64,000 nucleotides of DNA, taken from the NCBI GenBank assembly GCA_964016885.1, contig OZ024763.1:27652001-27716000 (forward strand). The letters are read 5' to 3'. Each line of letters opens with the position of its first letter. The stretch's first letter is position 1. Both the position numbers and the translations under genes were made by a program. This document shows positions 35,968 through 36,130 of this stretch, piece after piece. The DNA is from Eledone cirrhosa (Eukaryota). The notes under the pieces are model-generated. The model was given only the letters and a program-made list of their open reading frames with translations, was not told the origin of the DNA and ran no database searches.

Positions 35968-36130
35968 TAGGAACCAGTAAGACCCCGACGGCTGAGCTCA
36001 AGCCGTCGAAACGGCTTGAGCTCAGCCGTCGGGGTCTTACTGGTTCCTATTACCCACTCTACTACCCCAAGTATTGAGTACTTTGGTGCGTTATGGTCCA
36101 CCTGGTTCCTTACCACATTTCCTTCGTTAT
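35968..36130. mobile_element. Fold-back mini copy of the Naiad terminus (perfect 39-bp hairpin, CGAA loop, plus tail)
   Basis: 35968-36006 is the exact reverse complement of 36011-36049; tail runs to ...CCTTCGTTAT; (TA)n flanks. Confidence 0.88.

Follow-up and report, generated by a model that had tools for sequence, protein, structure and literature searches.

Fold-back minis of a Hydra-clade Penelope-like element as probable short insertions that end next to two predicted stem-loops

Introduction

The window, a stretch of 64,000 nt, contains a 5.8-kb Penelope-like element (PLE) and a group of much shorter fold-back repeats (minis) in (TA)n, which end at the same two positions as the element itself. 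The question raised by this locus is how such minis are formed and what fixes their ends. Positions are given as window coordinates or on a scale whose zero is the predicted hammerhead cut after 22519 (plus-strand copy); +1 is 22520, which equals 20347 in the direct copy. The features are collected in Table 1.

Table 1. Coordinates of the element, its signals and related copies in the window.
Feature	Position	Strand	Remarks
Full Hydra-clade Penelope-like insertion	16801..22618	-	Inverted pLTR with tail, direct pLTR, ORF and 3' pLTR, in (TA)n
3' pLTR copy	16801..18010	-	Terminates at priming site 1 (+20)
Intact ORF, 717 aa, ATG at 20157	18004..20157	-	RT (YRDD), CxCX5C linker, then C-terminal GIY-YIG-type endonuclease
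5' direct pLTR copy	20249..21324	-	Contains 79-nt tail (+21..+99)
Inverted pLTR copy	21321..22618	+	Begins at ORF stop codon region, terminates at priming site 2 (+99)
Type I hammerhead (predicted) with long stem II; U3-A8 core UUGAGAA at 22436-22442	22425..22537	+	Predicted cut after 22519
TATA-like TATTTAAA (22450-22457) and initiator-like TTAGTCC (A 22479 = -41), in hammerhead stem II	22450..22483	+	Putative transcription start
Predicted stem-loop S1, ACTC-N16-GAGT-ACT	20296..20322	-	5 nt 3' of +20 end
Predicted stem-loop S2, GCTC-N14-GGGC-ACT	20220..20244	-	3 nt 3' of +99 end; missing from all minis
S1 inside long arm of 35968 mini, ACTC-N16-GAGT-ACT	36056..36082	+	Descriptor scan
Fold-back mini (35968)	35967..36129	.	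Antisense short arm begins at +20, sense long arm ends at +99; in (TA)n
Fold-back mini (27736)	27735..27930	.	Short arm ends at -41/-44, long arm begins at -30, extra A's between them
Fold-back mini (36187)	36187..36342	.	Short arm ends at -40, long arm begins at +4; insert of 5 nt at the joint
Fold-back mini (36578)	36577..36773	.	Both arms to -37, TA between
Fold-back mini (61135)	61134..61289	.	Short arm ends at -37 and has lost sequence between GACGGC repeats; long arm begins at -41
Solo long arm, uninverted	27025..27162	-	+99 to -40
Diverged fold-back	~27502..27610 (approximate bounds)	.	Turns at about +2..+4
Short/short-like fold-back	37010..37113	.	Fused with another family at its left end; arms reach -39 and -33/-35

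Full Element and Its Clade

The full element starts as (TA)n-ATAGGAACC at 16801 and terminates as CCTTCGTTAT-(TA)n at 22618, in agreement with the boundaries given in an earlier note on this DNA. That note had placed the two ends about 20 and 100 nt past the predicted cut; the measured values were +20 for the short end and +99 for the long end. The inverted arms of the full element were 1.07 kb long. The inversion (21321-21335) joins at a G run beside a native 10-bp inverted repeat (17770-17779/17998-18007) in the 3' UTR, at the ORF stop codon.

The hammerhead was predicted to consist of stem I, the unpaired UUGAGAA core, a long stem II, GAA and a stem III of 5-6 bp, and further copies lay on the minus strand in both direct pLTRs. 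The U3-A8 core is a described variant of the PLE hammerhead (PMC4209133). The folding energy was unexceptional (z -1.13) and by itself gave the fold weak support. The hammerhead was absent among the 150 listed of 276 Rfam matches, which held only sub-threshold miRNA and snoRNA look-alikes, and a tRNA search of the window gave none.

The 717-aa protein carries YRDD at residue 347 and the GIY-YIG-type motif at residues 590-607, that is, after the RT. The other motifs were RWR at 36, DKT at 116, CNCPDRSIC (CxCX5C) at 571, CNLC (CxxC) at 669 and CKH (CxH) at 697. The RW of RWR was conserved in alignment A1, where the consensus is RWK, and CCHH was absent as judged by eye. Residues 560-716 matched protein-atlas GIY-YIG clusters at 0.95-0.96. 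Pfam gave one weak RVT_1 match (E 0.069) with part of the protein and no match with the whole of it, and the PDB sequence search returned nothing significant. Homologues of similar length made up 2,276 of 8,000 scored candidates, and no relatives were found in viral contigs.

Hydra-clade elements are described as having an RT with a C-terminal GIY-YIG, RWK-type, DKT, CxCX5C, CxxC and CxH motifs around conserved E and N, and no CCHH, and Naiads as having an N-terminal endonuclease (EN) before the RT, DKA, a CxC between EN and RT, and no canonical hammerhead (PMC8557442). The present element departs from the Naiads in that its EN is C-terminal, it has DKT and not DKA, its sole CxC is the C-terminal CxCX5C linker and a type I hammerhead is predicted. 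It shares with the Hydra clade the single ORF with its domain order, the RWK-type and DKT motifs, the CxCX5C linker, the CxxC and CxH motifs, the pLTR hammerhead and the (TA)n target, and a likeness of the protein to proteins of the supplement was seen by eye. The window monomer is longer than those described there, about 3.5 kb compared with less than 3 kb, and its hammerhead differs in the U3-A8 core and in the long stem II that holds a TATA-like box. The Naiad label previously given to the 5.8-kb parent was dropped because of the C-terminal EN, the Hydra motifs and the hammerhead fold; by motifs and domain order the element is assigned to the Hydra clade.

Fold-Back Minis and Their Junctions

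The five minis reported earlier were all present with the ends named for them, at lengths of 156-197 bp, and all of their turn points lay inside the ribozyme span (-44 to +4), as had been claimed. The perfect hairpin with a CGAA loop at 35968 was also verified, its stem being 39 bp from 35968 and 40 bp from 35967. The arms of this mini are joined via a native 6-nt inverted repeat, AGCCGT/ACGGCT, flanking CGAA. A special role for the loop was rejected, as CGAA is native sequence between the 6-bp inverted repeat of the ribozyme. Three related copies had been overlooked: the solo long arm, the diverged fold-back and the short/short-like fold-back of Table 1. Copies of intermediate length were absent from the window, and an exact 24-nt mini pattern had 0 matches in metagenome contigs.

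The junctions of the two-armed minis in the window were all different (7 of 7). They showed 0-6 nt of microhomology or 2-5 extra nt, with a 6-nt microhomology in 35968, a 2-nt overlap in 37010, inserts of 2-5 nt in 36578, 27736 and 36187, and a blunt joint in 61135. When the arms were compared, as had been proposed, a mean of 1.2 differences in 22 was obtained within a copy and 3.8 between copies (measured in five copies, with two padding letters added to one arm). Private variants were common to both arms, which indicated that the arms of a copy came from one subfamily and possibly from one RNA.

The short arm of 27736 contains -31..-41, which is missing from its long arm, and the long arm holds +21..+99. 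Similarly, the short arm of 36187 holds +3..-40, again missing from the long arm, which holds +21..+99. The inverted copy of the full element combines the distal UTR with the tail. Because the junctions all differ and each arm of 27736 and 36187 holds private sequence, these copies are better read as two joined cDNAs than as a propagating family or a simple snap-back product. Two separately templated opposite cDNAs, as expected of twin priming, were present in 27736, 36187 and the full element; 35968, 36578 and 61135, taken alone, also fit snap-back. The earlier proposal of two priming points, both fixed and each serving the cDNA of one target strand, gains from these templated arms and from the fixed ends in the reads described below; the priming on each strand is what we infer from them.

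Outer Ends in Public Sequence Runs

Four public runs, possibly from the same species or a relative (X1 may be the source of the window), were aligned to 19950-20700 at 80% likeness. Loose (TA)n ends piled up at 20248 (+99), with 8,895 and 9,730 reads in the raw-read runs X20 and X21, 302 contigs in X1 and 4 in X4, and at 20328 (+20), with 3,444 and 3,019 reads, 84 contigs and 3, respectively. The ends, which the earlier note had allowed might prove random, are therefore not random, and +99 was commoner than +20.

The raw-read depth was about 14,000-15,000 at 20262-20365, compared with 30-390 on the ORF side and about 400, dropping to less than 100, on the UTR side. Depth ratios do not equal copy numbers here, because both runs come from reduced-representation libraries, an AATT site lies within the segment, and subfamilies are pooled at the 80% threshold. 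As a rough read-depth figure, the abundance of the minis relative to ORF sequence was very high, roughly two to three orders of magnitude. A large read end at 20381 was rejected as evidence, being an AATT site and a likely restriction cut of the library (with presumed enzyme identities), and for this reason the read depth does not place the inner end; 20158 is a CATG site.

A strand-switch joint directly linking the +99 and +20 outer ends occurred in 31 and 8 reads and may represent tail-to-tail neighbours or another intermediate. In addition, the X1 depth showed a second, smaller step near 20465-20470, about 120 nt upstream of the cut, possibly owing to subfamily divergence or another stop.

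Stem-Loops Next to Both Ends

The predicted stem-loop S1 is found 5 nt past the +20 end and S2 3 nt past the +99 end, after a 3-nt overlap of these ends with the (TA)n target. This duplicated stem-loop, which predicts both ends, had been overlooked in the earlier note. Its presence in relatives was examined with 77 metagenome loci encoding homologues, from the best 80 of 540. Of the 78 sequences with the window included, 57 had an ORF start and 49 were scorable, at least 130 nt upstream being needed; three mis-set starts act as misses or noise. The strict half-motif GAGCACT was found between the hammerhead and the ATG at least twice in 33 of the 49, once in 8 and not at all in 8, compared with 70 of 4,900 shuffled sequences with two. 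Furthermore, GCTC-N8..28-GAGC-ACT gave 64 sites in 33 hand-picked loci, with a spacing of 54-82 nt, and the motif was also present in named Hydra consensi.

Pair-preserving changes were seen in ACTC/GAGT (window), TCTC/GAGA (L055) and GCCC/GGGC (Hydra-1_Crog), with GCTC/GGGC in S2 of the window, and a stem pair was broken at two sites (L022 and L047). The stems are mostly invariant, so the covariation support is limited to a few cases. With 4 bp they were weak by energy (z -0.40 and -1.51), and MAFFT left their 5' halves unaligned. The pairing is plausible, with light support from these sequences.

All 8 informative (TA)n junctions in the relatives lay 2-11 nt 5' of a stem: the first stem in L025, L039, L047, L048 and L050, the second stem in L016 and the inverted arm of L007, and a variant stem in the inverted arm of L061. 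This count omits seven rows in which the TA run lay in a repeat common to both copies (L016, L022 and L043, two each) or only preceded a stem. In the window, the descriptor scan gave 18 matches against a shuffle mean of 5.2 (maximum 12), and 14 of them were in the full element, its minis or other (TA)n-bounded fold-backs. In four other families of the window the short end was found, by eye, 4-5 nt ahead of the stem; the fold-back at 30277-30703, which ends about 21 nt before its apparent stem, was an exception. From such placements it seems likely that the stem-loop tells the copying enzyme where to start.

No published description of the duplicated Hydra stem-loop was found in the papers searched or in the supplement text, the latter with 0 matches for 'stem-loop' (subscription papers, Repbase reports and figures lay outside this search), and matching text was absent from the PAc (Poseidon) supplements, figures excluded. 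A (TA)n run directly before a sense stem-loop was noted at L002:454-472, L015:973-988, L027:3011-3018, L035:2483-2490 and L062:2419-2438, which suggests that the run arose by insertion into the priming site of the element itself, or by expansion there.

Inner Limit and Putative Transcription Start

The arms also shared a hard inner limit near -41, which had likewise been overlooked. Among the inner ends of 15 arms, 9 lay at -33..-44, 2 at -30, 1 near -22 and 3 near +2..+4, and none lay beyond -44 from either outer end. In the runs, 6 of the 13 listed strand-switch joints had one side at 20387/20388 (-40/-41), with partners at 20290, 20294, 20319, 20334 and 20350, and the furthest listed position was 20392. 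Besides these 13 there were 9 more; each joint had 1-4 read starts, and near-perfect hairpins are likely under-reported. The summed X1 depth fell tenfold, from 2.57 to 0.25 million, across 20391/20392.

The TATA-like box and the initiator-like sequence of Table 1 suggest a transcription start at this limit. Their combination had one match in the 3,600-nt sense monomer, at -41, with a shuffle rate of 0.0023, the words being those of a consensus and the promoter criteria and windows chosen post hoc. In the relatives, 4 of 5 such matches lay at -35..-46 (37 sites). TATA words began at -82..-66 in 10 of 35 loci (the 37 sites minus L002:169 and L007), compared with a rotation mean of 3.9, and 2 of 5,000 rotations reached 10, in a window picked after looking; 25 of the 35 had no TATA there. 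In the second fold-back family of the window, 5 of 6 arms stopped at -39..-47, there just 5' of the core and not in the middle of stem II. Penelope is known to have starts within its pLTR (PMC2377424), and such starts have been put forward for rotifer elements (PMC3846280). Inspection by eye led to the rejection of a Pol III A/B-box promoter, as the B-box-like stretch varies among copies.

Proposed Mechanism and Alternatives

The minis are probably independent, very short insertions of the Hydra PLE, with outer ends 5' of two predicted stem-loops, in which cDNA was primed on each (TA)n strand and ran off at the 5' end of the RNA. Pol II would start at about -41, within stem II of the ribozyme, so that the 5' end of the mRNA would carry S1, S2 and only half a hammerhead. 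The RT-endonuclease would bind each stem-loop and prime from nicked (TA)n. The cDNA would then run off after about 61 or 140 nt, and a minor class would halt near the ribozyme cut, at +2..+4. Host end joining would link the cDNA ends head to head, giving an asymmetric hairpin, or leave a solo arm. Long copies would be obtained only if the template extended past -41, whether as a read-through tandem RNA, as a circular monomer or by a jump to the 3' end of an RNA that repeats -41..-1 there. The tail would correspond to the spacing between the two stem-loops.

A more specific version, which is tentative and rather doubtful, compares the products with the strong-stop cDNA of LTR elements. The stem-loops would load the RT at two sites downstream of the start, one per target strand, long copies and pLTR tandems would arise only by a jump to the repeated RNA 3' end, the minis would be failed jumps, and the tail would be one signal period.

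With the same two priming sites, the inner limit might be a point at which the RT stalls, or the RNA is processed, in the structured ribozyme helices and not the 5' end of the transcript. The limit does lie within or at the edge of these helices, three arms halt near the predicted cut, and the promoter matches are AT-rich and post hoc. However, the limit stays at about -40 whether this falls in the middle of stem II (the Hydra element) or just 5' of the core (the second family; L007), the sole TATA and initiator match sits at the limit, and relatives show positional TATA enrichment, which makes such a stall unlikely. A single cDNA or antisense RNA might instead prime itself by snap-back, the endonuclease fixing the other end during resolution, as in PMC3846280 and PMC8557442; this would agree with the closer likeness of arms within a copy. 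It would also agree with the cDNA hairpin AGCCGT-TTCG-ACGGCT (z -2.3) and with a 35968 loop that is part of the long arm. This origin is distinctly improbable all the same: self-copying cannot make 27736 or 36187, non-templated inserts separate arms, solo arms and the 3' end of the full element use +99 and +20 independently, and both ends precede a stem-loop.

The earlier note had also offered a non-autonomous family mobilised in trans, in which the Hydra enzyme would re-insert whole transcribed minis. Their high abundance relative to ORF sequence and their uniform size would suit such a family, but it is very unlikely given that no two of the two-armed minis share a junction and that the -40/-41 side has five different partners in reads and contigs. 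Moreover, the minis lack S2 and the TATA-like box, so they could not regenerate the +99 end under the stem-loop model, yet +99 is the commoner end. Long palindromes are unstable, and the 1.07-kb inverted arms of the full element show that long head-to-head insertions exist, which might later collapse by deletion across the palindrome centre. Collapse predicts scattered inner ends, whereas a hard limit was seen, even in the solo arm at 27025, and intermediate lengths are missing from the window; we give this route very little credence. The chance that the minis are assembly or library chimeras, which the earlier note had named as a danger, is close to nil. Perfect hairpins can be sequencing artefacts, and the reads were inspected for the class and not for the 35968 locus; nevertheless, arms differ by substitutions, they are asymmetric and joined through inserts, and seven joints had identical coordinates in two separate raw-read samples.

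Comparison with Known Elements

In LINE-1 twin priming, two target-strand primers give a 5' inversion that is joined by microhomology. There the internal position at which the second primer anneals varies, and the arms have hardly any overlap, whereas the Hydra minis have fixed sites and full overlap. Both-strand priming has been demonstrated biochemically for Poseidon PAc (PMC11167929). Poseidon PAc resembles the Hydra element in that two internal RT starts flank the tail, both strands are nicked and extended, the target is AT-rich and the sites lie downstream of the hammerhead. It belongs to another clade, and its tail is 30-40 bp inside the ORF, compared with 79 nt (54-82 in relatives) in the 5' UTR here. 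The portion of PMC11167929 consulted names one AC-rich stem-loop and no duplicated motif, describes a start site without target homology, whereas an overlap of 2-5 nt with (TA)n is usual here, and leaves inversions and short run-off insertions untreated. Similarly, neither the stem-loops nor the two end positions nor the minis are described in the sections of PMC8557442 consulted.

Other PLEs (PMC3846280; PMC4209133) share the inverted head-to-head copy, the optional tail, palindromic junctions, a putative pLTR TATA and initiator, and single and opposite-strand hammerheads from truncated copies. These were explained by self-priming, possibly on antisense RNA; in the present case two minis exclude self-copying and the inner limit is fixed. 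The non-LTR retrozymes (10.64898/2026.07.22.740005) are also small non-coding PLE pLTR derivatives with hammerhead sequence. They are, however, tandem with complete ribozymes, whereas the minis are inverted or solo, carry only the 3' half of the ribozyme (the 5' core half is missing) and have no common junction.

The earlier reading of the minis as a direct footprint of PLE integration was supported in part and overstated as to novelty. Two start sites bounding a tail and inverted pLTRs were already in print (PMC11167929, PMC8557442, PMC3846280), as were both-strand priming in vitro (PMC11167929) and opposite-strand hammerhead pairs (PMC4209133). The run-off explanation was not found in the published literature searched, and it would explain PLE tails and inverted ends. 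PLE RTs are sister to telomerase, and a stem-defined internal template start would therefore be of wider interest. A duplicated cis-signal found across the clade would predict both ends within a few bases, and, together with a fixed inner stop, this would open PLE integration to simple experiments. Many (TA)n-bounded hairpin repeats that resemble MITEs or miRNA precursors in such genomes would then be scraps of Hydra elements.

Other Repeats in the Window

A second (TA)n fold-back family was located at 24976-25155, 61344-61540 and 62839-63030, with a fragment at 36798-36845. It has a canonical CTGATGA hammerhead, an ACTC..GAGT stem-loop, short ends at about +21 and inner ends at -39..-47, and is likely another Hydra family, whose parent is absent from the window. 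A third family has the same stem-loop and consists of (TA)n fold-backs and solo arms at 26100-26552, 30277-30990, 36887-37016 and 50660-50920; its arms extend well upstream of the hammerhead core and so define no common inner limit. Two more families with hammerhead-like cores and the stem-loop occurred at 22663-22960, 30164-30267 and 50930-51105, and the 22663 copy shares a (TA)n run with the full element.

Fold-back palindromes beside TA-rich runs, with no stem-loop match, were present at 36386-36509, 27402-27476, 29862-30095, 52348-52527 and 52521-52735. A nested set of direct repeats of 148 bp and inverted repeats of 224 bp occupies (TA)n at 61770-62750, in a pLTR-like layout of another non-coding unit. 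A SINE-like insert of about 190 bp at 30725-30915, flanked by 17-bp direct repeats, splits a fold-back long arm, and related pieces lie at 41024-41129 and 51123-51628. On the minus strand, two adjacent non-LTR retrotransposons at 2830-8291 and 8766-14365 have a long open ORF1 and an APE-RT ORF2 (frames of 1,150 and 1,204 aa). They were 77% identical over 3.4 kb and L1/Tx1-like by eye. Another non-LTR element with interrupted RT frames was found at 38996-41032, also on the minus strand.
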